Origin: a virus
Length of the DNA stretch: 64,000 bases
IMG/VR virus record: IMGVR_UViG_3300042691_019444
Location: 1 to 64,000 of that record
Direction: 5' to 3' (one strand)
Positions 1,272 to 63,032 of the stretch are shown piece by piece (within the stretch, counting starts at the first letter, position 1; every line of letters begins with the position of its first letter). Under the pieces are notes generated by a model. The model was not told where the DNA came from and ran no database searches. It worked only from the letters and a program-made list of their open reading frames with translations. Made by a program: the position numbers and the translations under genes.

Positions 1272-3377
1272 ATGACCGCGAAGAGAGAGGTAATTGATGC
1301 GATGTTTCCTAGTCGGAGAACGGCTAGGAAACAGATGACCGCAACACGTGTTGCGGTACAGGTAGAACAGAGTGCACCTGAAGTGGATTACTCCAGGTTT
1401 GTTCAGGGTGCCAATCCCGAACAGACCGAGGCAATCCTTCATCGCGAAGGCCCCTTGGGGGTGTTTGCGGGTGCAGGTAGTGGCAAGACCAGAGTTCTGG
1501 TCTCCCGCGTAGGCGCACTCATCGCTTCTGGTGTTAGGCCAGAAAGAATCGTCAGCGTGACCTTCAGTAAGAAGGCTGCTGATGAGATGGGGGAGCGAGC
1601 AGCCAAGATGGGAATCCAAGGAGCGGTGTTTGCCACATGGCATTCCCTCGCGTTGCGTATGCTTCGCGAGGATGGGACGGAGTGGGGCACGGTCTGGAGT
1701 GTAGACGACACGGACCGGGCCAAACTCATTCTCAAGTCCGATGTACTCGGATACAAGGGAATGGGATGGAATGGTGCTGACTTGGGTCAAGTAGCGTCTT
1801 TCATCTCGTTCTGTAAGTCTCAGTTGTGGGCTGCTAATTCATCAGAGGCACAAGCCTACGCTGAGAAGGAGTTCGCTAAGGACTCTAAGAAGGCAATTGA
1901 AGCCTTCAAGCGGTATGACGTGGAGTTGGCTGATAACCAACTACTCACGTTCGATGACATGCTGGTGTTTGCCTATCAGTGGCTCTCCGTGGAGGAGAAC
2001 CGCAGACGATGGGCATCTAAGTGGGATTACGTCTTGCAGGATGAAGCGCAAGACGCCAACCCCGCACAGATGAAACTCGCGTCTATGTTGGCACGGGACC
2101 ATCGAAACTACATGATCGTCGGTGACCCTGCGCAAAGCATCTACGGATGGCGCGGGTCAAAACCAGAGTACATTACGACTTTCGCTTCCGTGTGGGAGGG
2201 TGCCAAGGTCGTGTGTATGAATCGCAATTACCGTTGCGGTTCACGCATTGTTGACGTCGCTAACGCGGTTATCACCAAGGCTGCAATCAAGCTCCCTGAC
2301 GACCTTATTGCAGAAGGTGGTTGGGAAGGTAACGTGTCATGGCGTCAGTGTAGTGACATGGATGCCGAAGCCAATTTCGTGGCTGCGGAAATTCTGGAGC
2401 GCCACAATACCGACCTAACACCCCTAGAACACAATACGGTTCTCTTCCGGACTAACGCGCAGTCTCGCGCGTTGGAAGAGGCTCTGCTCGCCCGTCAGAT
2501 CCCTTACGTCGTAGTGGGGGGTGTGTCGTTCTATGAGCGTAGAGAGGTGAAAGACATTCTAGCATACCTAAGAGTCGCATTGGGTAAGGGCAATCAGGAC
2601 GAGAACGTGCGGCGATGTCTCAATTCTCCATTCCGATACTTGGGAGCGGCATTCGCAGATAAGCTCTCAAGGTCATTGGTGGCGTTCCGTGGGAACGTTG
2701 CTAGTGCGGCGTACGATGCCTGTAATGCTACGCGTGTGCAGGCACGCCAGCGGGCATCCGTGATGGAATGGGTAGGTATTCTGGAGTCAGTAGTTGCGTA
2801 TGAGAACCGCCTCCATGATAAGGAATCAAGCGAAGAGAACGCAGGAACTCTCATTGATGCTTTGGTTGAGAAGACCAAATACATCGAGTGGCTGAAGCGT
2901 GACCAGGGGGAAGAAGGGTTGGAGTCGTCGCATGTTGCCAACATCAAGGAGTTGGCACGTGTTGCGACGCGCTTTGCGACTGCCACTGAACTACTCACAT
3001 TCATTGACAACACCATCGCCGCTGCGGAGCGGCAACGTAAGCAGAAGGAGCAGAAGGGGCGAGTTCTTCTCATGTCCATTCACCGATCTAAGGGTCTCGA
3101 ATGGCCTAACGTGTTCGTTATTGGTGCCGTGGAGGGGATTCTTCCCCACGGCAGGGGCGAGCCTGAAGAGGAACGCAGACTGTTCTATGTGGCTTGCACG
3201 CGAGCGGCACGCAGACTCTACATTACCTCTCCTAAGAGCATTGCACTCAAGGGAGGAGTCAAAGAAGTGAAGGTGTCCCAATTCGTTCGGGATGCCGGAT
3301 TAGGGGATGAGTTGGACTACTTTACTGACCTTGCCAGGGAGCGGGGGGAAGATGAGGAGCTGTGCGGTATCGCATAG
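1272..3377 (+). CDS. uvrD: UvrD/PcrA/Rep superfamily 1 DNA helicase
   Basis: AGAGSGKT, TFSKKAA, QDEAQD, VGDPAQSIYGWRG, NYR, HRSKGLEW, EERRLFYVACTRA; SD GGAGG at 1261. Confidence 0.95.
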   Translation: MTAKREVIDAMFPSRRTARKQMTATRVAVQVEQSAPEVDYSRFVQGANPEQTEAILHREGPLGVFAGAGSGKTRVLVSRVGALIASGVRPERIVSVTFSKKAADEMGERAAKMGIQGAVFATWHSLALRMLREDGTEWGTVWSVDDTDRAKLILKSDVLGYKGMGWNGADLGQVASFISFCKSQLWAANSSEAQAYAEKEFAKDSKKAIEAFKRYDVELADNQLLTFDDMLVFAYQWLSVEENRRRWASKWDYVLQDEAQDANPAQMKLASMLARDHRNYMIVGDPAQSIYGWRGSKPEYITTFASVWEGAKVVCMNRNYRCGSRIVDVANAVITKAAIKLPDDLIAEGGWEGNVSWRQCSDMDAEANFVAAEILERHNTDLTPLEHNTVLFRTNAQSRALEEALLARQIPYVVVGGVSFYERREVKDILAYLRVALGKGNQDENVRRCLNSPFRYLGAAFADKLSRSLVAFRGNVASAAYDACNATRVQARQRASVMEWVGILESVVAYENRLHDKESSEENAGTLIDALVEKTKYIEWLKRDQGEEGLESSHVANIKELARVATRFATATELLTFIDNTIAAAERQRKQKEQKGRVLLMSIHRSKGLEWPNVFVIGAVEGILPHGRGEPEEERRLFYVACTRAARRLYITSPKSIALKGGVKEVKVSQFVRDAGLGDELDYFTDLARERGEDEELCGIA
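1338..1357. repeat. Dispersed palindrome ACCGCAACACGTGTTGCGGT, in frame in the helicase N-terminus
   Basis: Exact 20-mer; encodes TATRVAV. Confidence 0.95.
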
Positions 3378-4012
3378 CCGACGGGGTACCTGCTCGGTCT
3401 GCAAAGATGGGCGGGTATCCAACTCCAACGTTCGATCAATATCTACATGCTCTAAGGGACGGCCGCATAACGTTCGACCGGTTCCTTAGTGCGACCACCA
3501 TGCGATGGTGGGCATTGTCGGCCACGCTCTATCGTAAATGGGGCAAGGACGCCTCGGGGGTGGATGTGGCTGACTTGTACCAGGAGCTAACTCTAGCAGC
3601 CTGGACGTTCGTGTCGCAATGGGACGCTACACGTGGAACCACGTTGGAGCAGTTCGTTGTATATAATGCAATGGACAAGGCCAAGAAGTGGTTACACGTG
3701 CAACGCGCGGCCAAACGTAGCGGTAATGCGGATGGCAATCCATCTCGGCGTGAAGTCTGTTCTGATTCAATCAAGCGCAACGTAGGCGTGATTGAATCAG
3801 AACTAACGAGGTTTGATGGGTACCGGGAAGCTATGAGTAAGGCCGACGAAAAATTCGGTTGCATCATCCATAGCCTCGCGCGTACAAATAGTGTCACAAT
3901 GACTGCGAGGGAGATTTACAAGTCAAAGGAGCGTAGGCGGGAGTATCACCTATGCTCTCTTGAGCATGCACATCGCGTGGTGCGGAGTGTGCTCAAGCGA
4001 CTTGCGTCCTAA
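3362..4012 (+). CDS. Phage sigma-70-family (region 2) RNA polymerase sigma factor-like protein
   Basis: DVADLYQELTLAAWTFVSQWDATRGTTLEQFVVYNAMDKAKKWL fits the region 2 pattern (DLxQE...W...D..RG..F); region 4 degenerate; alternative start at 3407. Confidence 0.7.
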   Translation: MRYRIADGVPARSAKMGGYPTPTFDQYLHALRDGRITFDRFLSATTMRWWALSATLYRKWGKDASGVDVADLYQELTLAAWTFVSQWDATRGTTLEQFVVYNAMDKAKKWLHVQRAAKRSGNADGNPSRREVCSDSIKRNVGVIESELTRFDGYREAMSKADEKFGCIIHSLARTNSVTMTAREIYKSKERRREYHLCSLEHAHRVVRSVLKRLAS

Positions 4013-4036
4013 CACCGCAACACGTGTTGCGGTGTT
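4011..4036. repeat. Dispersed palindrome, extended to 26 bp
   Basis: AACACCGCAACACGTGTTGCGGTGTT. Confidence 0.95.
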
Positions 4037-4045
4037 GGGCAAATG

Positions 4046-4053
4046 CGGCATAA
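4046..4053 (+). promoter_or_regulatory. CGGCATAA putative phage promoter element
   Basis: Recurs upstream of many SD/start codons. Confidence 0.6.
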
Positions 4054-4079: not shown

Positions 4080-5342
4080 ATGGCGGCGAAGAAATGTTAC
4101 GGCGTGGTTCTGGCAAAGGCGAACGAGGAAAGTGTCAATGCGGCGCTCAGCGCTGCGGACCTACCGGAAGACGGCACCCTTGAGGAGAAGATCGGGCGTC
4201 TCGTAGCGTACTACCGCAAGGAAGTTTCGAAAGAGAACCTTGCGAAGTGCGACAACTGCGAGGGTGTTTCCGACGTCAGTCTGGACAAGTGCCCATATTG
4301 CGGTGAGGGCGACGAAGAAGAGGAGTCCGAAGAGGAGGAGTCCGAAGAAGAGGAGTCCGAAGAGGAGGAGTCCGAAGAGGAGGACGAGGAAGAAGAGTCC
4401 GAAGAGGAGGACGAGGAAGAAGAGGAAGAAGAAGCGCCACCCCCACCCCCAAAGAAGGAGAAGGGTAAGAAGGCTGAACCGGAGCCCAAACCCGCAAAGG
4501 GTAAGAAGGCTGAACCGGAGCCCGAACCCAAACCAGCAAAGGGCAAGAAAGCAATCGATGCCGTCACTACGGCAATCGCACCTGCGAAGAAACCAGGGCG
4601 TCCACCGAAGGCTGAGATCGTCAAGGCTGAGGATGGTCCTGATCCAAAGTACAAGGTCGGTGACCTGGATACGGCAATTGAGCGCGTGAAGGGCCTTCGA
4701 GCAAAGGGCGAAGAGACCCTGTACGACCTTGGGAAAGAGCTTGCGGCCATTCATGGGGAGCAATTGTGGAAGCTCCGCCAGGACAAGGATGGGAATCCTG
4801 CCTATAAGGGGTTCGGTCAGTTCTGCGCGGCCGAGGTGGGGTTGTCACACACAACAGTATTCCAACTCATCGATGTGTCGACGAAGTTCGACCGCAAGCT
4901 GTTCAGTGAAGTCGGCCATAAGAAGTTGGCACTTGTGCTTCAGGCTCCCGAGGCCGTGCAACCTGAACTCATCAAGAAGGTGAGCACCGGAGTTTCTCAC
5001 CGAGACCTTCTCACGGAAGTGAAGGCCAAGCGCGACGAGGCAGGGGTTTCCAAGCGTAACACCGGTCGCAAGGAGATGCCGAAAGGTAAGGCCCCCAAGA
5101 GCAAGAAGACTGAGCCTGCAATCACCATTGCGGCGGTCATTGGCAAGAAGACCATCAAGCTCTACCAGGACCCCAAGAAGTCCGGTAAGAAGGAGTTGGT
5201 CCCCGCCACAGACCTGGCTCAGAACCCATTCGGGTACGATGAGTTGGGCAACGGTGTGCGAGAATACTTCAGCATCCAAAAGGGTCCTGATGGGGCTCTG
5301 ATTCTGCACATCGTGCGTAAGCGTGAAGGCAAAGAGAAGTAA
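4080..5342 (+). CDS. Putative DNA-binding/nucleoid protein (Zn ribbon, Glu tract, Lys/Pro repeats, DUF3102-like helical domain)
   Basis: CDNC..CPYC; (EEEES)n; KGKKAEPEPKPA repeats; LGKELAAI...YKGFGQFCAAEVGLSHTTVFQLI; SD AGGAGG. Confidence 0.55.
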   Translation: MAAKKCYGVVLAKANEESVNAALSAADLPEDGTLEEKIGRLVAYYRKEVSKENLAKCDNCEGVSDVSLDKCPYCGEGDEEEESEEEESEEEESEEEESEEEDEEEESEEEDEEEEEEEAPPPPPKKEKGKKAEPEPKPAKGKKAEPEPEPKPAKGKKAIDAVTTAIAPAKKPGRPPKAEIVKAEDGPDPKYKVGDLDTAIERVKGLRAKGEETLYDLGKELAAIHGEQLWKLRQDKDGNPAYKGFGQFCAAEVGLSHTTVFQLIDVSTKFDRKLFSEVGHKKLALVLQAPEAVQPELIKKVSTGVSHRDLLTEVKAKRDEAGVSKRNTGRKEMPKGKAPKSKKTEPAITIAAVIGKKTIKLYQDPKKSGKKELVPATDLAQNPFGYDELGNGVREYFSIQKGPDGALILHIVRKREGKEK

Positions 5343-5363
5343 CCGGCTTACTGCATCATCGAC

Positions 5364-5402
5364 AAAGGTCATCTATCTACCCGATAGGTGACCTTTTTTT
5401 TT
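5364..5402 (+). terminator. Rho-independent terminator
   Basis: GGTCATCTATC-TACCC-GATAGGTGACC followed by T9. Confidence 0.85.
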
Positions 5403-5409
5403 GTCTCAA

Positions 5410-5433: not shown

Positions 5434-8112
5434 ATGCGCTATGTTGGCGGATTCGTCGATAGGGACTATACGACGCTCGTTTACAGGACTGCGGACGGCG
5501 TTCGGAGAGGGAGGCAGTTTCCGGTTGAGTGGGTGACGTATTTCAAGCTCTCGCAACTAGGGCAATACCGAAACGATATTGAGCGCTCTACGGCGGTACT
5601 TGGCGCGCGTGTGGAAAACGATGAGTGGTTGCGGGTTAGGTGGGCAACAAGGGATGCCCGCTATGCCGTGACAGCAACAACTGACCGCCAAGGGAACGAC
5701 ATACCGAATTGGTTTCGCATGAGGGGCATTGTTCCGTATGAGAATGATGTGAGTCCCGTACGTAGGTTCTTTTCGGATAACAACGCAGAGACGGAACCGT
5801 GGCCGAGAGTCGCATATCTGGATATCGAAACTGACTCACGTTTACCGTTCTCTAAGCGTGAGCAGATGCGGGTGTTGTGTTGGACGGTAGTGGCGGGGTG
5901 TGATTGTCCTGAGAAGAACATCCAAGAGGGGGACGTGATATTCGAGGGATTGGAAGAGTTCACAGATGAGTCTGAGAAGGAGTTGCTAGATAAGCTGTGG
6001 ACTGCACTGGAACCGTTTGATGTGGTGGCGGCATGGTATGGGGACGGGTTTGACTTTCCGGTCATCAGGGCACGCACCCTGAAGGTTGGATTGTCGATTC
6101 AGTTTGAGTATTGGCGGTTCGTGGATCATCTGCGCGTGTATGAGCTTCTCAATAAGAACGTTGCGGAGACTGGAGATGAGAAGTCTTCGCTTGCCCTGAA
6201 TAGCGTGTGTCAGGCTGTGTTGGGTAAAGGTAAGCACGACTTCGATGCAAGTAAGACGTATCAGGCTTGGGAATCCGGTGGAGCAGAGCGTGAGCGGATG
6301 TTCGCTTATTGCCGTCAAGATACTAAGCTGTTGAAGGAGTTAGAGGATAAGACCGGATACCTGAAGACGTTCGGTACTATGTGTGCGGCGTGCAGGCTGT
6401 TCATGGAAACCTATTCACTGAAGTCTTCAATTCAGATGGATGGGTTCATGCTCCGGTTGGGTCGTGAGAGTAACTACCACTTCCCCTCAACGTTTGGATT
6501 CACGCCGTTGAACGAACTTACGTATAAGGGTGCATGGGTGATGAGCCCTAAACTGCACGGCATAATTCCCAACGTCCATGTGGCAGACTTTAGTTCACTG
6601 TACCCGAGCATCATGATTAGTTGGAATATGAGCCCGGAGACTGTGAACCATGAAGCTCCAATCAACGGCCCAATACCCCCGAATTCATGTAGGGCGCCAG
6701 GGACCGGAGTGGTGTTTAGGACCGACGTAGAAGGGTTGTTGCCTAAGGCGCTGAACGTGTTGTTGGGTATGCGTAAGGAGTGGGCCGATAAGAAGTCACA
6801 ATGCGTCCCAGGTACGCCTGAGTTTCAGGCAGCCGACCGTTGGAGCATGGCCTATAAGGTATTGGCAAATTCGTTCTACGGTGTAGTGGGGAGTACCAAT
6901 AGTCGATACCATGACCGTCGCATCGCTGAGTCTGTTACACAGACAGGCGCATGGTTGAATCAGACTACGGTGTTCGAGGCTGAGAAGGTTGGGATTATGG
7001 CCTTCTACGGTGATACGGATTCGTTTTTTGCCAATCAGGTAAGTAAGGATAGGTTCGCGAACTTCGTGGAGTGGTGCAATGTTGAGTTGTACCCAAGACT
7101 ACTCAAAGAACGAGGGTGCACAATCAATAGAGTGAAGTTGGCGTATGAGAAGGAATTCGCAGCCCTAATCCTCCTTGCAGCTAAGAAGTATTTTGGGTTC
7201 TATCAGCACTATAAGGGGAAGCCTGCTACGGCTAAGTCCAAACCTGAAGTGAAGGGGATGGAGTATCGGAGGGGGGATTCAATTGCTATTGCACGTGAGA
7301 TGCAGGGGCGCGTGATTGACATCTTCCATAAGGGAGTACAGTACGACGACAACGGCAACGTGAAGGGGTTCGTTGCCCCTGAACCAACTGACGTGTTGCC
7401 AATTCTGGAAGAGTACCGGGATAGGACGTTGAGTGGAAACCTTGATCTGAACGACATTGTGTTGGCTCAGTCATTGACTCAGCCCATATCCGAATATAAG
7501 GCGAAGACGCCGCCAGCCCATATCCGGGTTGCGATGATGTTGCGGGAGCGCGGTAAGGACGTTAGTCCGGGCACCCGTATTCGATATGTCGTAATCGACG
7601 GGTCGAAGTCTCCGAAGGTTGTGATTCCAGCGGAAGACTGGACTGGTGAATATGACTGCTATGCGGTTTGGGAAGATAGGTTGTTTCCGCCGACCGGGAG
7701 AGTGTTGGAGGTAGCGTTCCCTAACCATAACTGGAAGCCGTGGTTTAGGGTACGGCCAAAGAAGCGACGGGGAGCTACCGCCAAGGAGCAGCCAAGCCTA
7801 CCGTTGCACAACCCCAAGGCAACGCCACCCAAGCCCGTTATGGTGCCACCCAAGCCCGTAGCACCGCCACCTATGCGCCCCACCCCCCTAACCGTGCGCA
7901 TCAACGCCACAACCCCTGATAGCAGGCAAGTAAGACGCGCAATCCTATCGCTCAAACCTCTCATTGAATCGTGCGAGCCGGGTGACACCAAAGTCATCAT
8001 TGAGGTATCGACTGGTGATGCGATTATGACGTTGTTGGTGACCAATCCCATAACGCCAACCGCCCAATTGATTGCAATCTTGAAGAAGAAAGGATGGTTA
8101 CATGCGTCGTAA
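5434..8112 (+). CDS. polB: Family B DNA polymerase with 3'-5' exonuclease
   Basis: Exo DIETD, FDFP, YCRQD; Pol DFSSLYPSI, KVLANSFYG, YGDTDS, KKYF, KGME. Confidence 0.95.
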   Translation: MRYVGGFVDRDYTTLVYRTADGVRRGRQFPVEWVTYFKLSQLGQYRNDIERSTAVLGARVENDEWLRVRWATRDARYAVTATTDRQGNDIPNWFRMRGIVPYENDVSPVRRFFSDNNAETEPWPRVAYLDIETDSRLPFSKREQMRVLCWTVVAGCDCPEKNIQEGDVIFEGLEEFTDESEKELLDKLWTALEPFDVVAAWYGDGFDFPVIRARTLKVGLSIQFEYWRFVDHLRVYELLNKNVAETGDEKSSLALNSVCQAVLGKGKHDFDASKTYQAWESGGAERERMFAYCRQDTKLLKELEDKTGYLKTFGTMCAACRLFMETYSLKSSIQMDGFMLRLGRESNYHFPSTFGFTPLNELTYKGAWVMSPKLHGIIPNVHVADFSSLYPSIMISWNMSPETVNHEAPINGPIPPNSCRAPGTGVVFRTDVEGLLPKALNVLLGMRKEWADKKSQCVPGTPEFQAADRWSMAYKVLANSFYGVVGSTNSRYHDRRIAESVTQTGAWLNQTTVFEAEKVGIMAFYGDTDSFFANQVSKDRFANFVEWCNVELYPRLLKERGCTINRVKLAYEKEFAALILLAAKKYFGFYQHYKGKPATAKSKPEVKGMEYRRGDSIAIAREMQGRVIDIFHKGVQYDDNGNVKGFVAPEPTDVLPILEEYRDRTLSGNLDLNDIVLAQSLTQPISEYKAKTPPAHIRVAMMLRERGKDVSPGTRIRYVVIDGSKSPKVVIPAEDWTGEYDCYAVWEDRLFPPTGRVLEVAFPNHNWKPWFRVRPKKRRGATAKEQPSLPLHNPKATPPKPVMVPPKPVAPPPMRPTPLTVRINATTPDSRQVRRAILSLKPLIESCEPGDTKVIIEVSTGDAIMTLLVTNPITPTAQLIAILKKKGWLHAS

Positions 8113-8628: not shown

Positions 8629-8648
8629 ACCGCAACACGTGTTGCGGT
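8629..8648. repeat. Dispersed palindrome
   Basis: Exact 20-mer. Confidence 0.95.
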
Positions 8649-8677
8649 ATAGTTGGGGAGCCGTTCCGGGTAGCGGC

Positions 8678-8711
8678 AGGGATGCACGGGTAGTGCGTCC
8701 CTTTTCTTTTT
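8678..8711 (+). terminator. Rho-independent terminator
   Basis: AGGGATGCAC-GGGTA-GTGCGTCCCT followed by a T-rich tract. Confidence 0.8.
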
Positions 8712-10107: not shown

Positions 10108-11301
10108 ATGATGGGACGGAAACGTATTGTCGATGAAACTCCAATGGTGTTGGGTTACGAAGAGGAGGAATTTGGGGTTGAGTCGGTGGAGAGTCTGATA
10201 CCACCCCGTAATGAAGTGTTGGATGCGTTGAGGGGTGTGGCGGCAGACATAAATCGATGGGGGGCTGCTAAAGAGGTACTTACTAACGTGAGGGCCGTGA
10301 AGACGTGTTTCCCTCAATTCAATAAGGCCACCAAAGTAAACGGATTCCCAATCGAACGGTTCACATTGGTGCATGGGCCATCAGCGCACGGGAAGACGAC
10401 ATTCGCAATTGGGGTGGGAATGTCATTCCTGATGGGTAACCACTTCTATGCACATTGCGACGCTGAGAACACCACACCCGCAGACTACGTTGATAAGTTG
10501 ATGGGCTCGTATGCGGATCATCCAGCATTCCTTGCTATGCGCCCGCGTACGTACGAGCAAGCCATTGATGGTGTGAGGCAGTTCTGCGAAGTAATCCATA
10601 AGGCACGGGAAGAGGGCAAAATCCCTGCCGATACGTCTGGCGTCGTAGTGATGGATTCGATTCAGAAGCTCATGCCCCAACACTTACTGGATAAGATTCG
10701 GAAAGAAGGGGCTGATGGGTTGGGGGGTAGGGCGGGGCAGCTCAAAGCTGCAATGAATCAGGCGTGGCTGAACGACCTGATACCGATGCTGAACCAAACG
10801 GGGACCGCTGTACTTGCAATTGGTAGGGAAGCGCAAGACCCGAATGCAACTGAGATTGACCGCAAGTTCGGTAATGACTGGAAGCTAACGGGCGGCGTCG
10901 GATTGGTATACGACGCCTCCTTACTGGTGAGAGTCACGCGGTCATCTTGGGTATACGACAAACCCGGTGAGAACGGGGTAGTCATTGGGGAGAAGCACAA
11001 GTTGCGAGTCTGGAAGAGTAAGGTGGAGGCAAAAGACGCAAAGCATACCGAGTGCTTCTTTTATACGTCCAACGGTAAGGGTGGATATGCGGAAGGCTTT
11101 GATTTTCAACGCGACTACCTGGAGTTGGGAGTCGATTGCGGCGTAGTAACCAAGGCCGGAAGCTGGTTTTCGTTGGAGGATGATCGGTTAGGGCAAGGTG
11201 AACACAATGCCGTCTTGGCCTTACATCGGAATCCTAAGTTGTTTGAGAGGTTGAAGATGTTAGTTGATTCAACGTTGGAGAGTGAGGTAGGGGCATCATG
11301 A
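10108..11301 (+). CDS. recA: RecA/UvsX-like recombinase
   Basis: Walker A GPSAHGKT, DAENT, VVMDSI, GGVGLVYDASL, KSKV, KAGSWFS..RLGQG. Confidence 0.9.
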   Translation: MMGRKRIVDETPMVLGYEEEEFGVESVESLIPPRNEVLDALRGVAADINRWGAAKEVLTNVRAVKTCFPQFNKATKVNGFPIERFTLVHGPSAHGKTTFAIGVGMSFLMGNHFYAHCDAENTTPADYVDKLMGSYADHPAFLAMRPRTYEQAIDGVRQFCEVIHKAREEGKIPADTSGVVVMDSIQKLMPQHLLDKIRKEGADGLGGRAGQLKAAMNQAWLNDLIPMLNQTGTAVLAIGREAQDPNATEIDRKFGNDWKLTGGVGLVYDASLLVRVTRSSWVYDKPGENGVVIGEKHKLRVWKSKVEAKDAKHTECFFYTSNGKGGYAEGFDFQRDYLELGVDCGVVTKAGSWFSLEDDRLGQGEHNAVLALHRNPKLFERLKMLVDSTLESEVGAS

Positions 11302-12050: not shown

Positions 12051-12069
12051 CCGCAACACGTGTTGCGGT
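12050..12069. repeat. Dispersed palindrome
   Basis: Exact 20-mer overlapping the stop codon, followed by an SD. Confidence 0.95.
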
Positions 12070-15837: not shown

Positions 15838-15857
15838 ACCGCAACACGTGTTGCGGT
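15838..15857. repeat. Dispersed palindrome
   Basis: Exact 20-mer followed by GGAGG and ATG 15869. Confidence 0.95.
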
Positions 15858-17169: not shown

Positions 17170-17495
17170 AACGGCCAGTTGAGAGGAAGTCGCGCGTACG
17201 TGCGGATAAGATCAACCATGCACTGGCAAACGGTACACCTAAGGCATTCCACTACGAAGGAGTGACCATCAAGGGGGTATGGTACGACATTACGGTTCAG
17301 AAGATGGATTCCGGTAGATGGTGTTGGGAGGCAAAGCGGGTGATGTGTGAGACGGATACGGAGAACGATCTCGGTATCCCGCTGTCGTTGGTTGCCATAC
17401 TGAAAGAGGAACCGACCGTTACGTACGACACTCCAATTGAGTCGTTGGAGGCGGCGTATAGGTTGCTAAGTAGTCCGCAACACGTGTTGCGGTAG
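17136..17495 (+). CDS. Hypothetical protein
   Basis: ORF in operon; ends in the palindrome. Confidence 0.55.
   Translation: MGTICQFPTRVKRPVERKSRVRADKINHALANGTPKAFHYEGVTIKGVWYDITVQKMDSGRWCWEAKRVMCETDTENDLGIPLSLVAILKEEPTVTYDTPIESLEAAYRLLSSPQHVLR
17475..17492. repeat. Dispersed palindrome (18-bp core)
   Basis: CCGCAACACGTGTTGCGG followed by TAGGAGG. Confidence 0.95.
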
Positions 17496-24832: not shown

Positions 24833-24852
24833 ACCGCAACACGTGTTGCGGT
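24833..24852. repeat. Dispersed palindrome
   Basis: Exact 20-mer. Confidence 0.95.
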
Positions 24853-27390: not shown

Positions 27391-27410
27391 ACCGCAACAC
27401 GTGTTGCGGT
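27391..27410. repeat. Dispersed palindrome
   Basis: Exact 20-mer followed by GGAGG and ATG 27420. Confidence 0.95.
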
Positions 27411-29694: not shown

Positions 29695-29738
29695 ACCGCA
29701 ACACGTGTTGCGGCATAACGCATGTGGAGGTTGTTATG
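29695..29738 (+). promoter_or_regulatory. 44-bp palindrome + CGGCATAA + SD + ATG leader cassette
   Basis: 42/44 identical to 52636-52679. Confidence 0.85.
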
Positions 29739-32451: not shown

Positions 32452-32471
32452 ACGGCAACACGTGTTGCGGT
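32452..32471. repeat. Dispersed palindrome variant (ACGGC...)
   Basis: One mismatch; CGGCATAA follows at 32478. Confidence 0.85.
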
Positions 32472-34310: not shown

Positions 34311-34354
34311 ACCGCAACACGTGTTGCGGCATAACCGGTTAGGAGGTTGTGATG
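34311..34354 (+). promoter_or_regulatory. 44-bp palindrome + CGGCATAA + SD + ATG leader cassette
   Basis: Same geometry as 29695, 43764 and 52636. Confidence 0.85.
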
Positions 34355-37922: not shown

Positions 37923-37942
37923 ACCGCAACATGTGTTGCGGT
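37923..37942. repeat. Dispersed palindrome variant (CATGTG core)
   Basis: One C>T mismatch; precedes the terL SD. Confidence 0.9.
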
Positions 37943-40635: not shown

Positions 40636-40655
40636 ACCGCAACACGTGTTGCGGT
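40636..40655. repeat. Dispersed palindrome
   Basis: Exact; between CGGCATAA (40624) and the SD. Confidence 0.95.
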
Positions 40656-41323: not shown

Positions 41324-41343
41324 ACCGCAACCCGTGTTGCGGA
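41324..41343. repeat. Dispersed palindrome variant (CAACCCGTG)
   Basis: One internal mismatch; after CGGCATAA at 41313; a more degenerate copy at 41266. Confidence 0.85.
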
Positions 41344-43763: not shown

Positions 43764-43807
43764 ACCGCAACACGTGTTGCGGCATAACAGGTTAGGAGGC
43801 ATTCATG
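43764..43807 (+). promoter_or_regulatory. 44-bp palindrome + CGGCATAA + SD + ATG leader cassette
   Basis: Same geometry as 34311. Confidence 0.85.
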
Positions 43808-45281: not shown

Positions 45282-45875
45282 ATGAGCCCCCCTAGGTGGT
45301 TGACTAAGTTCCCATATAGGGGTGTCGGCATATGTTCGTGGTGCGGTAAGGCCACCCCACCGAAACGACGATACTGGTGTTCAAAGGAATGTGTTGAAGA
45401 GTGGATGATCCGTAGCAATGCCACGAGCCTACGTAGGGCAACGTTCGAACGGGACAGGGGCGTGTGCGCATTGTGCGGGGTCGACACAGAGGCAGTACAC
45501 AACGAGCTAACCAAACTCTACTACGATGCCCTAGCGAGGCAAGTAGGGGCAGGAACGTATCATGCCAGTCATGCCCTAGCTAAGCGCATTCCCGACTCAG
45601 ACCCCTACAGGGTTCGGATGCGTGAGTTGGGTAGTCCTAAGTGGATGAAGCGCTCTCTGTGGGAGGCCGATCATATTCAGACGGTTGTGGAGGGTGGCGG
45701 GGGTTGTGGGTTGGAGAACATTCGCACGTTGTGTTGGAAGTGTCATGCTGCGGAGACGGCTAAGCTACATGCCCGTCTGAAGGAGTTTCGTAGGCATTGC
45801 CCTCCTGATGTGGAGGCGTGGTTGGATGAACTAGGTACCGCAACACGTGTTGCGGCAGATAAGGAGGCCCCATGA
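45282..45875 (+). CDS. HNH endonuclease
   Basis: CSWC..WCSKEC; RDRGVCALCG; WEADHI..GGG..LENIRTLCWKCH. Confidence 0.85.
   Translation: MSPPRWLTKFPYRGVGICSWCGKATPPKRRYWCSKECVEEWMIRSNATSLRRATFERDRGVCALCGVDTEAVHNELTKLYYDALARQVGAGTYHASHALAKRIPDSDPYRVRMRELGSPKWMKRSLWEADHIQTVVEGGGGCGLENIRTLCWKCHAAETAKLHARLKEFRRHCPPDVEAWLDELGTATRVAADKEAP
45837..45856. repeat. Dispersed palindrome, in frame in the HNH C-terminus
   Basis: Exact core; encodes TATRVAA. Confidence 0.95.
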
Positions 45876-46237
45876 AGTGCAGTATGATCGTTCCGAGTGA
45901 AGTAGTGGCCGAACACTTACACGCTCGCGCGTGTGCGTGGGTGAAACGTCTATTGGAGAAGTGTGAGGTACAGGACGGGAAGGTCGTTATACCAGAGGAG
46001 CTAGTTAGGTCACTAAGCAATGCCGGGAAGGATTACCAACAACTAAACCCCATAGACCGATCCATTCTGCGGTATGAGGCTATGATGCTGATGCTGGCAA
46101 TCACAAGGCCAGAGTGGCACGGGCGTAAGTTGGTACGGTGTGGGGAGTGCAGTAGGCGCGTCAATGGTGTATGTGAAAACCATGGGTCCGAATGTGATGC
46201 GGACTGGGGTTGTGTGGAAGGATTGGAGGCACAATGA
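45872..46237 (+). CDS. Hypothetical protein
   Basis: SD AAGGAGG; Cys-rich C-terminus. Confidence 0.55.
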   Translation: MKCSMIVPSEVVAEHLHARACAWVKRLLEKCEVQDGKVVIPEELVRSLSNAGKDYQQLNPIDRSILRYEAMMLMLAITRPEWHGRKLVRCGECSRRVNGVCENHGSECDADWGCVEGLEAQ

Positions 46238-46968
46238 AGAAGGCAAAGTCTGATAAGCAAATCGTCGGGACCGTTGAGCATGTTGGCATCGATACGTTGA
46301 AGCCCAACAAGTGGAACCCAAATAAGATGACTACCCGCAAGATGGATAGTCTGAAACAAGGACTGATGGAGGAGGGTTGGCTATCGTCTCAGACGTTGCT
46401 GGTGTGGGGTACCGATAAGGACGGAGTTGCCCACAACGTCATTATTGATGGTGAGCATAGGTGGCGGGCAGCGAAGGCTTGTGGGTTCAAACAGGCTCCT
46501 ATTGTGGTGCTGAACAACATCACTGAGATGGAGGCAAAACGGCTAACCATCAAGCTCAATCAACGACGTGGTGAGTTTGACAGTACGATGCTTGGAGACC
46601 TGTTGAAAGAGGTTGCACGCGAGACGGATGCAGCGCTGTCGCTGGGCTTTGAGGATGACTATGTGAGCAAGCTCATTGCATCTACGGATAAGACCGTAAG
46701 TGCGGCAGTATCGGCAGCAACTCCTCCCCCTGCACCGCCACCCCCTCCTGCTCCACCGCCACCTCCTCCAACTAAGGTGGACGGCATCAAGGGCGTACAA
46801 CCAAACACCCGCATTCCGGTCGTCTTCTACATGGATTCAGATGAGGATGCGACTTTGGTGCGTGAAGTGTTTGCGCACGCTCAACGGCAATTCGAGTCTG
46901 ACAGTAAGTTGCTGTTGAGTGCCGCCAAGTACATCAAGGCCAATCCGACCGCTATTCCAAAGGGGTAA
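46234..46968 (+). CDS. ParB/Srx N-terminal domain protein
   Basis: LKPNKWNPN, IIDGEHRWRAA, LNQRRGE. Confidence 0.85.
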   Translation: MKKAKSDKQIVGTVEHVGIDTLKPNKWNPNKMTTRKMDSLKQGLMEEGWLSSQTLLVWGTDKDGVAHNVIIDGEHRWRAAKACGFKQAPIVVLNNITEMEAKRLTIKLNQRRGEFDSTMLGDLLKEVARETDAALSLGFEDDYVSKLIASTDKTVSAAVSAATPPPAPPPPPAPPPPPPTKVDGIKGVQPNTRIPVVFYMDSDEDATLVREVFAHAQRQFESDSKLLLSAAKYIKANPTAIPKG

Positions 46969-48305: not shown

Positions 48306-48325
48306 ACCGCAACACGTGTTGCGGT
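48306..48325. repeat. Dispersed palindrome
   Basis: Exact 20-mer between the radical SAM and glycosyltransferase genes. Confidence 0.95.
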
Positions 48326-48335
48326 GGAGTGGCAG

Positions 48336-50787: not shown

Positions 50788-51710
50788 TTTACCAAACCAA
50801 TCAGCCGTGGACTGTGCAGGTCGAACTAGTTGAGGGATGCAATAGGTTGTGCGCGTTCTGTGGCATAAACGCTATACGGACACGACCAGGTGATTACAAG
50901 TACATGACCGTTGAGACGGCAACCAAAGTAGCGATTGAGCTGGGGGCAATCGCTCCTAAGTGCAAGATTCATTTCGCAATGCATGGTGAGCCATTACAGC
51001 ATCCACAATTCCATTCGATGGTCTCATTGTTCCGCACAATCCTACCTGAAGTTGAGATGATGGTAGTCACGAATGGGCGTGTGATTATGAACGACCTACA
51101 GGGAGGGCTGAATCGGATATTCGAGGCTGGGATCGATATGGTGATGCTCGATACGTACGAGCCTGAGCGGGGGCGCCTACGCGCGGGTGTGGAGATACTG
51201 CGAGGCATTCTGGTCTCAGACTATTATGGTGATGTGGTGAAGGGTAATGCCCCGAACCCGTATATGAATCATCACCGTAAGGTGCGTGGATACTTGTGCG
51301 TGATGGATGATATTGGGATTCGTAATGGTGAGCACCCTTCACGGAAACTACACAACCATTCCGGTTCAAACCCGTTAGGAACTAAGGTCCAGTCTCCACT
51401 TCAGAAGACATGCACTAAACCGTTCCGTGAGATGAGTGTGAATTGGAATGGGGATGTGCGGTTGTGTTGCGAAGACTGGACTGGTGCCTATACGTGCGGC
51501 AATTTGAACGAGAGGTCTGCTGCCGATATTTGGTACGGCCCTGAATTCGAATCCGCGCGTACAATGCTTCAGAACAAGCGGCGTGATTTCGGAGCCTGTA
51601 AGGTATGTGATGCTAGTAGTGGGATGAGATGTGGATTGCTGCCGAAATACCCGTCAGTCAGTCCTGAAGTTGAGAGCATTGTTAGGAACACTGAGAAGGA
51701 GGCAAAATGA
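50784..51710 (+). CDS. Radical SAM protein with SPASM/twitch domain
   Basis: CNRLCAFC, GEPLQHP, TNG, CTKPF..WNGDVRLCC..CKVC. Confidence 0.9.
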   Translation: MIYQTNQPWTVQVELVEGCNRLCAFCGINAIRTRPGDYKYMTVETATKVAIELGAIAPKCKIHFAMHGEPLQHPQFHSMVSLFRTILPEVEMMVVTNGRVIMNDLQGGLNRIFEAGIDMVMLDTYEPERGRLRAGVEILRGILVSDYYGDVVKGNAPNPYMNHHRKVRGYLCVMDDIGIRNGEHPSRKLHNHSGSNPLGTKVQSPLQKTCTKPFREMSVNWNGDVRLCCEDWTGAYTCGNLNERSAADIWYGPEFESARTMLQNKRRDFGACKVCDASSGMRCGLLPKYPSVSPEVESIVRNTEKEAK

Positions 51711-52444
51711 AACGAAGACTGCAAAGCACCGCAACACGTGTTGCGGTCAAACCCGGTACGGTGCACCCGGTTGAGTACGTTCCCTATAAGGACCTAAAGA
51801 AGTCCGATTACAACCCTCGCAAGATGCCAAAGGCAAAGCTGGAGCGACTAGCTACGAACATTGCATTGTTCGGGTTCGTTGAGAACGTAGTTGTACGGAA
51901 GGAGACGGGGGAGATTATTGGTGGGCATCAGCGCATTGCTGCGCTTGAGTTGTTGGCGTCGGGTAAGTTTACGCCCAAGAATGCTGAAGGTAAGGAGATT
52001 GAATTCACACCCATCGTCAAGGTGCCAGTCATATACGTTGAGGGGTTGTCGGACTTTGACGTAAAGAATCTCAATCTCAGTCTGAACAGCATCAGTGGTG
52101 AGTGGGATTCCGATAAGCTGGGTACGCTTATCAATCAGATGGTCAGTGAGGTGGAGACCGCAATGGACAACATTGCGAAGGATGCACTTGCATATCTGTC
52201 GCCCAGCGGGTTGTCCACCGATGAGCTGAATGCAATCATCAACAAGGAATCTGAGGACGGGTTGGCGCCTGAACGTACAACCGGTGTCCCCAAGCTAAAC
52301 CTTGAGTTTACGTCGAAGGAACTTAGGGATGCATTCAAGGCGTTCGTTGGTGAGGAGAAGCAAGACGGGATTCCGAGCGGGGACCTACTTGCTAAGCGGT
52401 TGGGAATTGAGGTTGTGAAGAAGCGGAAGTCGAAGCGTACCTAA
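51707..52444 (+). CDS. ParB/Srx N-terminal domain protein (second copy)
   Basis: LKKSDYNPRKM, FGFVENVVV, IIGGHQRIAA, LNSISGEWD. Confidence 0.85.
   Translation: MKRRLQSTATRVAVKPGTVHPVEYVPYKDLKKSDYNPRKMPKAKLERLATNIALFGFVENVVVRKETGEIIGGHQRIAALELLASGKFTPKNAEGKEIEFTPIVKVPVIYVEGLSDFDVKNLNLSLNSISGEWDSDKLGTLINQMVSEVETAMDNIAKDALAYLSPSGLSTDELNAIINKESEDGLAPERTTGVPKLNLEFTSKELRDAFKAFVGEEKQDGIPSGDLLAKRLGIEVVKKRKSKRT
51728..51747. repeat. Dispersed palindrome, in frame in the ParB-like N-terminus
   Basis: Exact 20-mer; encodes TATRVAV. Confidence 0.95.
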
Positions 52445-52635: not shown

Positions 52636-52679
52636 ACCGCAACACGTGTTGCGGCATAACGCACGTGGAGGTTGTGATG
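52636..52679 (+). promoter_or_regulatory. 44-bp palindrome + CGGCATAA + SD + ATG leader cassette
   Basis: 42/44 identical to 29695-29738. Confidence 0.85.
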
Positions 52680-55591: not shown

Positions 55592-55611
55592 ACCGCAACA
55601 CGTGTTGCGGT
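55592..55611. repeat. Dispersed palindrome
   Basis: Exact 20-mer followed by AGGAGG. Confidence 0.95.
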
Positions 55612-56169: not shown

Positions 56170-56423
56170 TGATGTTCAATAAGGCGTTGATATGGATTGC
56201 GGCAAGATTTGAGAAGCTATCAGTCACACTGAAGTTGAGAGCCCTGAGCAACGATGGCAATTCTGTCAATGACCGAGTTGTGCCATACCCTCCCATCATA
56301 TCGACAGACGGACTGAGCATGAGATGTCCACTAACCGAGACTGAGGTACGGCGGGAGATGGTTACTAAACCGGAGATGCCTAGTGTGTTGAGGGGCAGTC
56401 TCCAAGATAGGATAAAGCGATGA
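56169..56423 (+). CDS. Hypothetical protein
   Basis: SD GGAGG. Confidence 0.5.
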   Translation: MMFNKALIWIAARFEKLSVTLKLRALSNDGNSVNDRVVPYPPIISTDGLSMRCPLTETEVRREMVTKPEMPSVLRGSLQDRIKR

Positions 56424-58561: not shown

Positions 58562-59713
58562 ATGGCCGATCCATCTCCCAAACGTAAACGCCCCCAAGTA
58601 GAATCCGAAACAGTGCGAGCGCAACGCCCGGTCGTGTACTCGCGCGCGGCCGCAACACGTGTTGCGGAAGCCGAGTTATTGAATCGGAGACAAGCCACCG
58701 ATTACGCGAGCAAAGTCGGAATCGATAAGGTCAAAAAGACTTTGAACGATGCGCGTGAAGACCTAAAGGATCGAACGCGTAAGCTGCATCCGGCCTTAGG
58801 TGACGACACCTTCACAGCCATGCATCTGAAAGCAACTATGATTCAGATTGATATTGTGGTTGGGAACATGAAGCCGGATATTGCGTCAGCCGTGAGTGAG
58901 TCAAAGCAGATTGCGGCAGATAGGGCGCAAGAGAACAGTCTGAAGACGCTAAGTGCCATTGACTCACGGTTTGAAGGGTTGGTTAGGGGCATGCCGTTGG
59001 AGGTTGCGATGCAGTTCGACCCGGATGCCGTGGGTAAGAATGCATCGATACTTAGACGTCTAATGGAATCACCAGAATCCGACTCAGTAGGGAATGCCAT
59101 TATGGAGCGGTATGGGACCGCCGTAGTGGGTGCATTTGAGGATAAGTTGAGAGTCGGTATGGTGACCGGTAAGTCGTTTGCGGAAATGCGCGAGGACTTG
59201 ATAGCGGAGTCTACTTGGCTACAGTCACAACCCATGTATTGGGCTCAACGGATAGTGCGCACTGAAGTGATGGGTGCCTATTCGAGAGCTGCATTGGAGA
59301 ATGCTAAAGATGCCAATAAGATTCTAGGCGATATGGTCAAGATTCTGGTGGCGGGGTTTGATGACCGTACCGCATGGGACTCATATCAGGTGCATGGACA
59401 AATTAGGAAGTTGAGCGAGCCGTTTGAGTGGATAACCCGAGACGGCCAACGCATAGCCTATATGACTCCCCCTAACCGCCCCAATGACCGCGAAACCGTA
59501 ATCTATCACAGGGTTGTGATGCCAATTCCTGATGACCTGAAACCGGTATCTGATGCGGAATATGAGGCGGTGTTTGTGAAGCAATGTAAGAGCAAGAAGA
59601 ACAAGTCTCCATCACCCCCCGCACGCCCGCGTATGACAACCGTCCCCCTAACATGGTTTGGGACTGGTATTCCGGACGACATGCAATCCGATTTCGAAGC
59701 GGCTAGTGAGTGA
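58562..59713 (+). CDS. Minor head protein (MuF / SPP1 gp7-like)
   Basis: RIVRTEVMGAY, DDRT, HGQIR...PF, PPNRPNDR. Confidence 0.8.
   Translation: MADPSPKRKRPQVESETVRAQRPVVYSRAAATRVAEAELLNRRQATDYASKVGIDKVKKTLNDAREDLKDRTRKLHPALGDDTFTAMHLKATMIQIDIVVGNMKPDIASAVSESKQIAADRAQENSLKTLSAIDSRFEGLVRGMPLEVAMQFDPDAVGKNASILRRLMESPESDSVGNAIMERYGTAVVGAFEDKLRVGMVTGKSFAEMREDLIAESTWLQSQPMYWAQRIVRTEVMGAYSRAALENAKDANKILGDMVKILVAGFDDRTAWDSYQVHGQIRKLSEPFEWITRDGQRIAYMTPPNRPNDRETVIYHRVVMPIPDDLKPVSDAEYEAVFVKQCKSKKNKSPSPPARPRMTTVPLTWFGTGIPDDMQSDFEAASE
58650..58667. repeat. Dispersed palindrome core, in frame in the MuF N-terminus
   Basis: Exact 18-bp core; encodes AATRVAE. Confidence 0.95.
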
Positions 59714-60547: not shown

Positions 60548-60566
60548 CCGCAACACGTGTTGCGGA
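60547..60566. repeat. Dispersed palindrome
   Basis: Exact core overlapping the stop codon. Confidence 0.95.
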
Positions 60567-60873: not shown

Positions 60874-61054
60874 TGCGGATACGCAATGTGTCCAGAAAGA
60901 CGGAGACACCACGAAGGAACCCGATGTGAACAGCAAGTTCACCGCCGAAGGTGGGGTATCCATCTTTGATGACCTGGAAGCCGGTAAGGAGTCGGGGTTT
61001 GACGAAGGTGTCGGGTCGATTGGTGTTGGGAAGAAACCATTCAACGTCCGATAA
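60833..61054 (+). CDS. Small acidic hypothetical protein
   Basis: SD AAGGAG. Confidence 0.55.
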   Translation: MAMGQQTGTANHSDADTQCVQKDGDTTKEPDVNSKFTAEGGVSIFDDLEAGKESGFDEGVGSIGVGKKPFNVR

Positions 61055-61063
61055 GGAGCAATC

Positions 61064-61474: not shown

Positions 61475-61477
61475 TAC

Positions 61478-62107: not shown

Positions 62108-62141
62108 TCCGCTGTAGGTCAGTTCAATCAGGAGGCCCCTC

Positions 62142-63002
62142 ATGCCCACTAAATCGACAGATACCAACGAGTTCATTTCATCTCTGGTCAACCCGGTTGT
62201 TACCGAAGGTTCGGGCGGTAGTGCGGACGGTTCGGAGACTAAGTCGGATACCAAACAAGGCGAGACTAAGTCGGATACCAAAGAGACCAAGTCCGGCTCA
62301 GACGAAACCAAACCAGAAACCAAACGGAAGGCCGATGACGGCGAGGATGTAGATGTGGATGAGAATGAGCGCGTCACAATGACGTTCGCTCAGTTTCAGA
62401 AGCGTCTCAAGCAAGCCCAGCGAGCAGTTCTGCGCGGTACGTTTGAATCCGATGATGTTCAGAAGATCCGGAAAGACTGGGAGAAGTCACAAGCGGCGCT
62501 GAAGGAACTCAATGAGATCAAGAAGTCGAGAATGGATGAGGTTGAAAGGGCGAAGAAGGAAGCCGAGGAAGCCAAACTCCAACTCGCTGAGCTTGAGAAT
62601 TCGGTGAAGGAACGTGAGCTGAATGACCTAGCTAACCGGGGCGAACAGGAAGTCCTGAACGTGGCAAAGAAGTTCATTCATTCCGACTACATCGAGGATG
62701 CTGTGCTGCTATTCCAGGGACACCTTGGGAAGTTGAGTGAAGCTGAGTTGGAGCAACTAACGCCTGAGAGTGTCAATTCGTGGTTCAAGGATTACGTCAA
62801 ACGGCGTCCTGCATTGGCCGTCTCAAGTGGCGAGAAGTCGGATAAACCGCAGCCTCGTCCAATCAATAGTGGGGCTGCCCCAAACAAGCCAAATTCGGAT
62901 GACAAGTCCGCACTTGCGAAGACCCCACGTCCTGGGCAACCCAATTCAATGACTCGTGCGGAATGGGATGATTTCAAGCGTCGCAATGGCTTGGATTACT
63001 AA
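62142..63002 (+). CDS. Capsid scaffolding protein
   Basis: Low-complexity N-terminus (ETKSDTK repeats), coiled coil, RPAL, MTRAEWDDFKRR tail; directly upstream of the capsid gene. Confidence 0.75.
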   Translation: MPTKSTDTNEFISSLVNPVVTEGSGGSADGSETKSDTKQGETKSDTKETKSGSDETKPETKRKADDGEDVDVDENERVTMTFAQFQKRLKQAQRAVLRGTFESDDVQKIRKDWEKSQAALKELNEIKKSRMDEVERAKKEAEEAKLQLAELENSVKERELNDLANRGEQEVLNVAKKFIHSDYIEDAVLLFQGHLGKLSEAELEQLTPESVNSWFKDYVKRRPALAVSSGEKSDKPQPRPINSGAAPNKPNSDDKSALAKTPRPGQPNSMTRAEWDDFKRRNGLDY

Positions 63003-63012
63003 TCCCTCCTTC

Positions 63013-63032
63013 ACCGCAATACGTGTTGCGGT
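63013..63032. repeat. Dispersed palindrome variant (CAATACGTG)
   Basis: One C>T mismatch. Confidence 0.9.

Follow-up and report, generated by a model that had tools for sequence, protein, structure and literature searches.

The genome studied here, that of an uncultivated tailed phage with IMG/VR record IMGVR_UViG_3300042691_019444 (G000 hereafter), carries one short palindrome, CCGCAACACGTGTTGCGG, dispersed over its whole length. In the window analysed, the first 64 kb of the 92,970-bp genome, this 18-mer occurs 23 times, as 19 exact copies and four with one mismatch (32453, 37924, 41325 and 63014), and the core starts run from 1339 to 63014. These are the copies and positions that an earlier sequence-only reading had given, and 100 dinucleotide shuffles of the window contained no match. 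That reading had also called for motif scans beyond the window: the whole genome holds 34 copies (29 exact, five with one mismatch), and most relatives have palindromes of their own. The half-site is (A)CCGCAACAC; 19 of the 34 copies have the flanking A as well as the flanking T and so form a 20-bp palindrome. The flanks are otherwise unrelated and show no target-site duplication, again as first described. The array is real, under strong selection and kept across the clade.

Almost all genes of G000 (G+C 52.6%, with a 69-bp terminal repeat) lie on the + strand. Our gene model has 133 genes and hence 132 junctions, of which 64 have gaps below 25 nt, too small for a palindrome. A palindrome is present in 27 of the 68 larger stop-to-start gaps, which bears out the claim that most copies sit between a stop codon and the next ribosome-binding site. 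The usual start is 0 to 18 nt past the stop codon, and 13 copies end 8 to 16 nt before the next start codon with the ribosome-binding site directly after them. The remaining seven copies overlap called genes, five of them within the first 67 nt or the last 20 nt of the gene; those at 1339, 51729 and 87678 lie 4 to 22 nt past a start codon, and those at 85421 and 91381 are internal to genes. On the + strand, all intragenic copies are in the frame that reads (T/A)ATR(V/I)A.

The copies are spaced at a mean interval of 2.75 kb genome-wide with a coefficient of variation (CV) of 0.51. Simulated CVs were 0.97 +/- 0.15 for uniform placement and 0.92-0.97 when 27 random junctions (all, or only those with gaps of at least 25 nt) were combined with seven random positions, and none of 20,000 simulations gave a CV as low as 0.51. 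The regular spacing noticed in the window thus beats sampling of gene junctions, the control that had been proposed for it; 18 of the 22 window intervals fall within 1.6-4.6 kb, or the 19 first reported if the interval of 4,615 bp is counted. In G000 and four relatives (G001-G004, see below) the CV ranges from 0.41 to 0.63. Even spacing is maintained by selection, even inside genes.

Table. Palindrome copies in the window, followed by promoter-like motifs and genes (window coordinates unless marked as genome).
Feature	Position	Strand	Remark
Palindrome, exact	1339..1356		4 nt past alternative ATG 1335 of UvrD-like helicase gene
Palindrome, exact	4015..4032		2 nt past stop of sigma-like gene, 13 nt before CGGCATAA; upstream of candidate reader gene
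Palindrome, exact	8630..8647		6 nt past stop; then T-run terminator, then CGGCATAA
Palindrome, exact	12051..12068		Abuts stop of SbcD-like gene; junction palindrome-bearing in 5/5 complete genomes compared
Palindrome, exact	15839..15856		ATG 15869 follows after 12 nt
Palindrome, exact	17475..17492		ATG 17504 follows after 11 nt
Palindrome, exact	24834..24851		Intergenic
Palindrome, exact	27392..27409		ATG 27420 follows after 10 nt
Palindrome, exact	29696..29713		Last 3 nt are first 3 nt of CGGCATAA
Palindrome, 1 mismatch (position 2)	32453..32470		CGGCATAA 7 nt downstream
Palindrome, exact	34312..34329		Fused to CGGCATAA
Palindrome, 1 mismatch	37924..37941		12 nt before large terminase start; junction shared with G001, G002, G004
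Palindrome, exact	40637..40654		CGGCATAA ends 5 nt upstream; ATG after 11 nt
Palindrome, 1 mismatch	41325..41342		4 nt downstream of CGGCATAA
Palindrome, exact	43765..43782		Fused to CGGCATAA; overlaps called gene, probably intergenic
Palindrome, exact	45838..45855		Within last 12 codons of gene ending 45875, 20 nt before stop; reads TATRVA
Palindrome, exact	48307..48324		1 nt past stop; ATG after 11 nt
Palindrome, exact	51729..51746		Codons 8-13 of ParB-N gene 51707-52444
Palindrome, exact	52637..52654		Fused to CGGCATAA
Palindrome, exact	55593..55610		ATG 55624 follows after 13 nt
Palindrome, exact	58650..58667		Just past portal gene; at or in start of head-morphogenesis gene
Palindrome, exact	60548..60565		Abuts stop; ATG after 11 nt
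Palindrome, 1 mismatch	63014..63031		About 22 nt upstream of TTGACA-type promoter of major capsid gene; block absent from G001, L002
CGGCATAA, example	4046..4053	+	
CGGCATAA beside palindromes (starts)	4046, 8720, 29711, 32478, 34327, 40624, 41313, 43780, 52652		
(T)TGCGGCATAA, window	4046, 5410, 8720, 26778, 29711, 32478, 34327, 40624, 41313, 42814, 43780, 52652, 54747		
(T)TGCGGCATAA, beyond window	85699, 88482 (genome)		
UvrD-like helicase	1272-3377		
Extracytoplasmic-function (ECF)-like sigma factor (region 2)	3362..4012	+	
Best candidate reader of the palindromes	4080..5342	+	420 residues; no Pfam or NCBIfam match
Family B DNA polymerase	5434-8112		
RecA/UvsX-like protein	10108-11301		
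SbcC-like protein	12498-14465		
PD-(D/E)XK nuclease	14462-15004		
Large terminase	37954-39606		
ParB-N domain protein 1	46234..46968	+	
ParB-N domain protein 2	51707..52444	+	
Portal	56420-58552		
Major capsid protein	63177-64571		
Small Fis-type protein, two helix-turn-helix (HTH) motifs	90987-91514 (genome)		Directly after DnaG primase; palindrome copy inside coding sequence
Baseplate wedge, DnaB, DnaG primase	All beyond window		

Relatives were collected by aligning homologues of the terminase, which gave 40 IMG/VR loci, and of the primase, which gave 22 more; a scan with a single terminase sequence had no match. Eight full relatives were fetched. Roughly half the loci from the terminase set, and most of those from the primase set, have a high-copy palindrome of their own, mostly perfect, 14-30 bp long and each with a central CpG. 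One syntenic relative with 68% DNA identity has kept the exact 18-mer. The site of G001 is CCGCAACACGTATTGCGG or its mirror, a one-base variant of the G000 site (31 copies), and L047 has CCGCAAACCGGTTTGCGG (18 copies in 17.8 kb). The 22-bp perfect palindromes of G002 (22-24 bp, built on GGATGATCGATCATCC), G003 (ATTGGAAACCCGGGTTTCCAAT) and G004 (AGTCGAGGCCCGGGCCTCGACT), with 18 copies in each genome, look unrelated to the G000 18-mer. Lower numbers are seen for a 30-bp palindrome in L036 (six copies in 21.6 kb), CTGAACATCGATGTTCAG in G009 (seven copies) and an imperfect 26-bp palindrome in G008 (about 10 copies). No palindrome array is found in G007, which is 97% complete, or in the fragment G006. 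At 26.5-38 kb (L117 and neighbours) G007 has nine copies of an oriented intergenic cassette, in which a TTGACC-like box is followed by ATAAACCGAAACCC and then by a hairpin with a T run; the cassette includes the half-site GAAACCCG, which is the palindrome arm in G003.

In total, about 20 lineage spellings were seen. Their central four bases are ACGT, CCGG, TCGA or GCGC, so that the central CpG is invariant; all four CpG-centred forms occur, and none of the 12 other self-complementary tetranucleotides does. The half-sites can be arranged as a series (GCAACAC, GCAAACC, GAAACAC, GAAACCC, CAAACCC, GGAACCC, GGAACTC, GAGGCCC, GAACATC, GAAGATC, GATGATC, GGTGATC), and such graded half-sites would be expected from drift of one reader's specificity. 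Positions are conserved as well. Among 43 sites of G001-G004 that could be projected to G000 junctions, 20 fall on palindrome-bearing ones, against an expected 22% (p = 3e-4). The junction after the SbcD-like gene bears a palindrome in all of G000-G004, the one before the terminase does so in four of these genomes, and at one junction the exact 18-mer is retained in three genomes despite diverged flanks. Single sites also turn over, since one G000 copy (63014) sits in a block that relatives lack.

A second motif, (T)TGCGGCATAA / CGGCATAA, is strand-specific in G000, with 16 copies on the + strand and two on the - strand. Most copies are intergenic, at 10-25 nt from the ribosome-binding site that follows, and only G000 and G001 have the motif; in G000 it is confined to the early/middle region at 4-55 kb, plus two later copies. 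Within 27 nt of a palindrome lie 8 of 16 copies in G000, where all eight are within 15 nt, and 7 of 15 in G001, compared with 5.4% of the genome, and the palindrome stands either upstream of the motif (fused at -3, or 7-13 nt off) or downstream (4-27 nt). Conversely, about a quarter of the palindromes overlap or abut CGGCATAA, and 25 palindrome sites are away from any such motif, the promoters being predicted rather than mapped. Probably the ECF-like sigma factor recognises CGGCATAA, rather than the palindrome, as its promoter element. The Pfam score of the protein is below threshold; its ECF-type region 2 motif is clear in an alignment of six orthologues. A sigma-like protein is present in G001-G004 and G008, is weak in G007 and was not found in G009. 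In G004, a related motif, CGGCATC, comes after the palindromes.

Convincing terminators, with a hairpin and a T run, number only two in 93 kb (about 5360-5403 and 8670-8711); they flank the DNA polymerase region and CGGCATAA follows each. None of the 34 palindromes is followed by a T run, and some copies stand between a promoter-like motif and its putative gene, so the palindrome is rejected as an intrinsic terminator. A terminator placed between a predicted promoter and the gene behind it would make no sense, while an operator to either side of the promoter would. The half-sites (GGAAC, GAAAC) were also considered as ECF -35-like elements and set aside, since inspection by eye showed no consistent -10 at a suitable distance. 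Two further signals were noted. In front of the major capsid gene, at 63053-63090, a TTGACA-type -35 with a TATCTT-like -10 is also kept in G001 and L002, and this gene therefore seems to use a host-type promoter. The element CTAG(AG)GTATTCTGC (genome 67230-67250) lies about 25 nt downstream of a palindrome, before a gene for a 733-residue structural protein, and is conserved at the same junction in G001 and L002; it may be a late promoter or other signal.

Taken together, the series of spellings, the conserved positions and the central symmetry suggest one sequence-specific reader per genome, whose specificity drifts and whose sites follow in place; the same three regularities argue against independent hairpins and against repeated invasions by a mobile element. 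On these patterns it is probable that a protein binds at the palindromes, and we incline, by a modest balance, to the view that they are docking sites on double-stranded DNA for a phage-encoded symmetric DNA-binding protein. The array of dimeric-protein sites tiling the genome that had been proposed at the outset is thus also the reading we favour, for its central dyad symmetry, for a spelling that is uniform within a genome and differs between lineages, and for its over-regular spacing. A symmetric protein pair would bind with one subunit on each half-site (A)CCGCAACAC. Protein and sites would co-evolve, lineages re-spelling the sites, often in place. The result would be a lattice of about one site per 2.7 kb, squeezed between a stop and the next ribosome-binding site, or into first or last codons where there is no gap. 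Because protein bound at the sites adjoining CGGCATAA would hinder RNA polymerase, we think of it as a genome-wide transcription regulator, which at promoters would repress from a bound operator and at other sites would possibly form a roadblock or serve as an organiser; KorB bound to OB operators and mycobacteriophage repressors bound to stoperators would be comparable. Regulation at promoters appears to be the best-supported function, and we hold a regulatory function of the palindromes to be a reasonable guess that is somewhat more apt to be wrong than right.

The product of 4080-5342 is the best candidate for the reader because its central domain is predicted to fold like the DNA-binding domains of ParB and KorB. 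The AlphaFold model consists of a zinc ribbon, a disordered linker, a helical HTH domain (residues about 190-325) and a beta-rich C-terminal domain, and the mean predicted local distance difference test (pLDDT) score of the domain model is 85. In a structural search of 48,161 representative solved chains with this domain, ParB-family DNA-binding domains dominated the top matches: ParB-parS 6s6h with Z 7.2 and a root-mean-square deviation of 3.0 over 97 residues, Spo0J (1vz0, Z 6.4), KorB (8qa8, Z 5.9; 1r71, Z 5.8), SopB (Z 5.3), P1 ParB (Z 3.9) and VirB (Z 3.8). Foldseek gave a probability of 0.8-0.95 for ParB, Noc and Spo0J, at weak E values of 0.2-1. This range of scores is supportive of a ParB/KorB-like fold, not proof of it, and may show a shared arrangement only. 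An N-terminal ParB CTPase domain had no Pfam or NCBIfam match in the protein, whose N-terminus is the zinc ribbon and a disordered stretch. The family is a large one in metagenomes, with 2,106 cluster representatives at E <=0.001; the 150 best matches have the same two domains at the C-terminal end, ten sampled members have no Pfam-named domain, and tblastn of the domain against published phages found no match. The gene is preceded by a palindrome and the promoter motif in G000 and G001, and by a palindrome in G004. The suspicion that had already fallen on this protein stands in so far as it is the best candidate, with the predicted fold to recommend it, and is weakened by its presence in G007, which has no array. 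That it reads the palindromes is a tentative assignment from the model, and we would sooner doubt it than rely on it.

Other candidates fared less well. The small Fis-type HTH protein, which in relatives is either a two-HTH fusion or a pair of adjacent single-HTH genes, was rejected as non-discriminating, being present in almost all lineages including G007 and showing no clear match between helix and half-site. A presence/absence profile of the G000 genes across the eight relatives revealed no gene that tracks the palindromes.

Several observations weigh against a phage-encoded dimer as the reader, or against the 4080 protein in that role. The structural matches of the latter stay below Z 8, a modest level, and Raf1, which is helical but unrelated, scores just as high; its putative recognition helix is no more variable than the rest of the domain by entropy; and its family occurs in G007, the nearly complete relative without the array. 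Seen in the direction of transcription, 25 of the 31 G001 copies have the one-base change in the same arm (25:6, p = 9e-4), a bias that a symmetric dimer does not explain. In L011 some copies have a compensating change in the other arm too, and from these and the one-arm variant of G001 it would follow that re-spelling passes through an oriented, asymmetric intermediate. The tight packing against stops and ribosome-binding sites would equally suit a function in RNA. Finally, an unrelated phage (L005/L006; IMG/VR contigs 3300018416_004886 and 3300022934_000335), which has a T4-type terminase and shares no protein with G000, bears nearly the same palindrome, with an asymmetric centre, in one orientation and directly before ribosome-binding sites; on this account a host factor, or a reader that can be transferred, is still to be considered. 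Several small genes of that phage have a leader of about 45 nt, consisting of AACCACA, then CCGCAACACCTGTTGCGG, then TCAAGGAGCTAAAT and the ATG, and its contig also holds two exact copies of the G000 palindrome.

Read as RNA, the palindrome would be an intercistronic hairpin of 7-8 bp that stabilises or marks processing sites, or insulates the next ribosome-binding site, and is read by an RNA-binding protein or nuclease. The 27 copies between a stop and the next start, the 13 that end 8-16 nt before a start, the mere two canonical T-run terminators in 93 kb, the hairpin energies of -10.2 to -11.9 kcal/mol and the orientation of asymmetric variants with transcription, in G001 (25:6) and L005/L006, are all consistent with such an element. 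However, an RNA loop is free to vary, whereas here the loop positions are self-complementary and the CpG is invariant in about 20 spellings; the prevailing G001 variant breaks a C-G pair on the sense strand rather than giving a G-U wobble; the copies just past the start codons at 1339, 51729 and 87678 would, as hairpins, hinder initiation; and no Rfam family reached its gathering score in a scan of the whole genome. We therefore consider an RNA element unlikely. (A hammerhead ribozyme at 148-212, tried separately, was rejected: Rfam had no match to it at the gathering score, and none at E <=1 when the stretch was scanned alone.) The invariant CpG between varying arms is also what would be seen at enzyme cleavage centres, and the palindromes might be sites where a symmetric phage nuclease nicks or cuts, or where a hairpin is extruded, as starting points of recombination-dependent replication or of priming. 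SbcCD-like, PD-(D/E)XK, RecA-like, UvrD and DnaB functions are encoded by the phage, and even spacing would suit distributed initiation, but no nuclease tracks the distribution of the array, 34 breaks per genome would conflict with packaging, and the association with the promoter motif would be left unexplained, so that a role in DNA transactions seems very improbable. Least credible is a mobile palindromic element resembling a repetitive extragenic palindrome (REP) or a miniature inverted-repeat transposable element (MITE). It would account for many identical copies and for junctions that gain or lose single copies, such as the 63014 block absent from G001 and L002, but it is close to refuted by the missing target-site duplication, the missing transposase (no Y1/RAYT transposase, PF01797, and no integrase, resolvase or ParA was found in G000) and the junctions conserved across differently spelled genomes; over-regular spacing and the lack of multi-copy presence in any species genome searched (below) also count against it.

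The reader might instead be a host component such as a nucleoid protein, global regulator or repair/nuclease system, each phage lineage copying its own host's site. This would explain why the unrelated L005/L006 phage, of similar G+C, has nearly the same 18-mer without a shared protein, and why no phage gene's presence tracks the array cleanly; several spellings also fit GAAC-N4-GTTC, the Gram-positive LexA box. Against it, the 18-mer occurs at only 41 places in 185,579 bacterial and archaeal species (one genome each), always as a single copy, and most of these matches are ordinary terminators or a conserved alphaproteobacterial coding motif, PQHVLRFWE, which we take to be MerR-like. The sequence-only reading had named a match to a host REP or operator as one finding that would overturn it; the genome scan found none, and both are rejected as explanations. 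G000 (53% G+C) and G001 (61%) moreover share the site while their hosts probably differ, and sites of 22-30 bp are longer than known host boxes. Altogether, a host reader is distinctly improbable. One mechanism considered from the start was clamp loading by ParB-type proteins: a CTP-dependent sliding clamp would spread out from every site and coat the genome, its CTPase part supplied by the ParB-N proteins, whose genes stand one at each end of a cluster at 46234-52444, and its DNA reader by a ParB-like HTH protein. In its favour, at least one ParB-N protein is encoded in each clade genome that Pfam or BLAST was used to check. The predicted DNA-binding fold of the 4080 protein is ParB-like, with no N-terminal CTPase domain, and CACGTG and CCCGGG, the inner cores of parS and of the Noc site respectively, recur in the palindromes. 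A spacing of 2.7-5 kb is also of the order of known clamp travel, KorB reaching promoters up to 1.5 kb away (PMC11790492). However, each of the two ParB-N proteins is lacking in some relatives rich in palindromes and occurs in others that have none. In the second, no HTH is detectable by sequence, and two of its distant homologues include a methyltransferase domain (PF01555). The box II motifs differ from GERRxRA, and ParA (PF13614, PF01656) has no credible match in G000-G004. The patchy distribution and the want of a sequence-detectable HTH make the ParB-N proteins themselves unlikely readers. To our knowledge no split ParB is known. The clamp-loading proposal is weakened accordingly, and we consider it quite unlikely.

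In parS/ParB, NBS/Noc, matS/MatP and SBS/SlmA, too, dimers recognise 12-16-bp palindromes distributed along a replicon. These arrays serve to organise or mark the chromosomes of bacteria, each within particular regions only; we know of none described for a phage genome. The cores that the G000 and the G003/G004 palindromes share with parS and NBS, respectively, are set in different arms. A parS/ParB centromere also has a full-length ParB (CTPase and HTH), ParA and sites clustered around a single locus, whereas the G000 sites are evenly spread and no ParA is encoded. The IncP plasmid RK2 has 12 OB sites, compared with 34 sites in G000, which is a lytic-looking phage. The OB operators, some only 4-10 bp from a promoter and others at distances up to more than 1 kb (PMC11790492), resemble the G000 array in being many dispersed palindromes on one replicon, both promoter-proximal and distal, and KorB acts genome-wide; the candidate reader in G000 has a predicted KorB/ParB-like fold. 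In KorB, however, the ParB CTPase domain is part of the same polypeptide, and KorA and a ParA act as its partners (PMC11790492); the 4080 protein is predicted to have a zinc ribbon and disordered linker instead, and its genome encodes no ParA. In Cluster A mycobacteriophages, 20-30 operators and stoperators are distributed genome-wide, few of them in promoters and most elsewhere in short intergenic gaps, as in G000, and their consensus co-evolves with the repressor (PMC6550527). In the G000 clade, too, the consensus differs from one relative to another with positions kept. Stoperators are, however, asymmetric, oriented with transcription and bound without cooperativity, whereas the G000 site is symmetric and only the G001 variant is biased (25:6); they serve lysogenic immunity in temperate phages (PMC6550527), and G000 has no integrase, resolvase or ParA. 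REP elements with their RAYT transposases share with the G000 array only that they are short intergenic palindromes in many copies (PMC3733652): G000 has no RAYT, no GTAG or CGTC tag and no multi-copy presence in bacteria, and its palindromes are perfectly symmetric and regularly spaced.

The closest precedent is found in the Cluster O mycobacteriophages, Corndog and its relatives, in which a 17-bp repeat, TGTTCGG-N3-CCGAACA, occurs in 34 copies in a genome of roughly 70 kb; its authors predicted a dimeric binder and gave the function as unknown (PMC4351075). The impression that the G000 array was an undescribed element must be qualified accordingly, a very similar, equally unexplained array having been published. 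Both have at least 30 copies of one short inverted repeat with invariant arms over the whole genome, in mixed placement: many Cluster O copies are intergenic and about a third lie in genes, as against 27 junction and seven gene-overlapping copies in G000. In both there is no integrase and no parABS, the Cluster O phages being devoid of lysogeny genes, and ParB-like domain proteins are present (PMC4351075). The Cluster O repeat differs in its variable, non-palindromic 3-bp centre, the G000 site being perfect through its invariant CpG, and it is denser at one genome end (PMC4351075), whereas the G000 palindromes are evenly spaced; lineage-wise re-spelling at conserved junctions is a feature of the G000 clade, unlike Cluster O. 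The phages themselves are unrelated, and megablast of 20 kb of G000 against 50,697 published phage genomes gave no match.

Phage arrays of a single palindrome over the whole genome are thus represented by one published report that we found, from 2015 and unexplained. The clade described here offers natural site/reader pairs for specificity swaps, through gradual re-spelling with fixed positions and a fixed CpG, and a concrete candidate reader with a predicted ParB/KorB-like fold makes the question testable. If a protein does bind, the array would be a phage counterpart of plasmid KorB or chromosomal Noc and MatP, with one protein addressing the whole viral chromosome, and orthogonal site-protein pairs could serve as tools. 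It is possible, if rather doubtful at present, that a CTPase-less ParB/KorB-type reader of the 4080 family and the array together constitute an undescribed phage chromosome system that marks, silences or folds the genome, the re-spelling perhaps keeping co-infecting relatives from cross-reacting; should this be so, it would, along with the Cluster O phages, suggest a general principle of large tailed phages.

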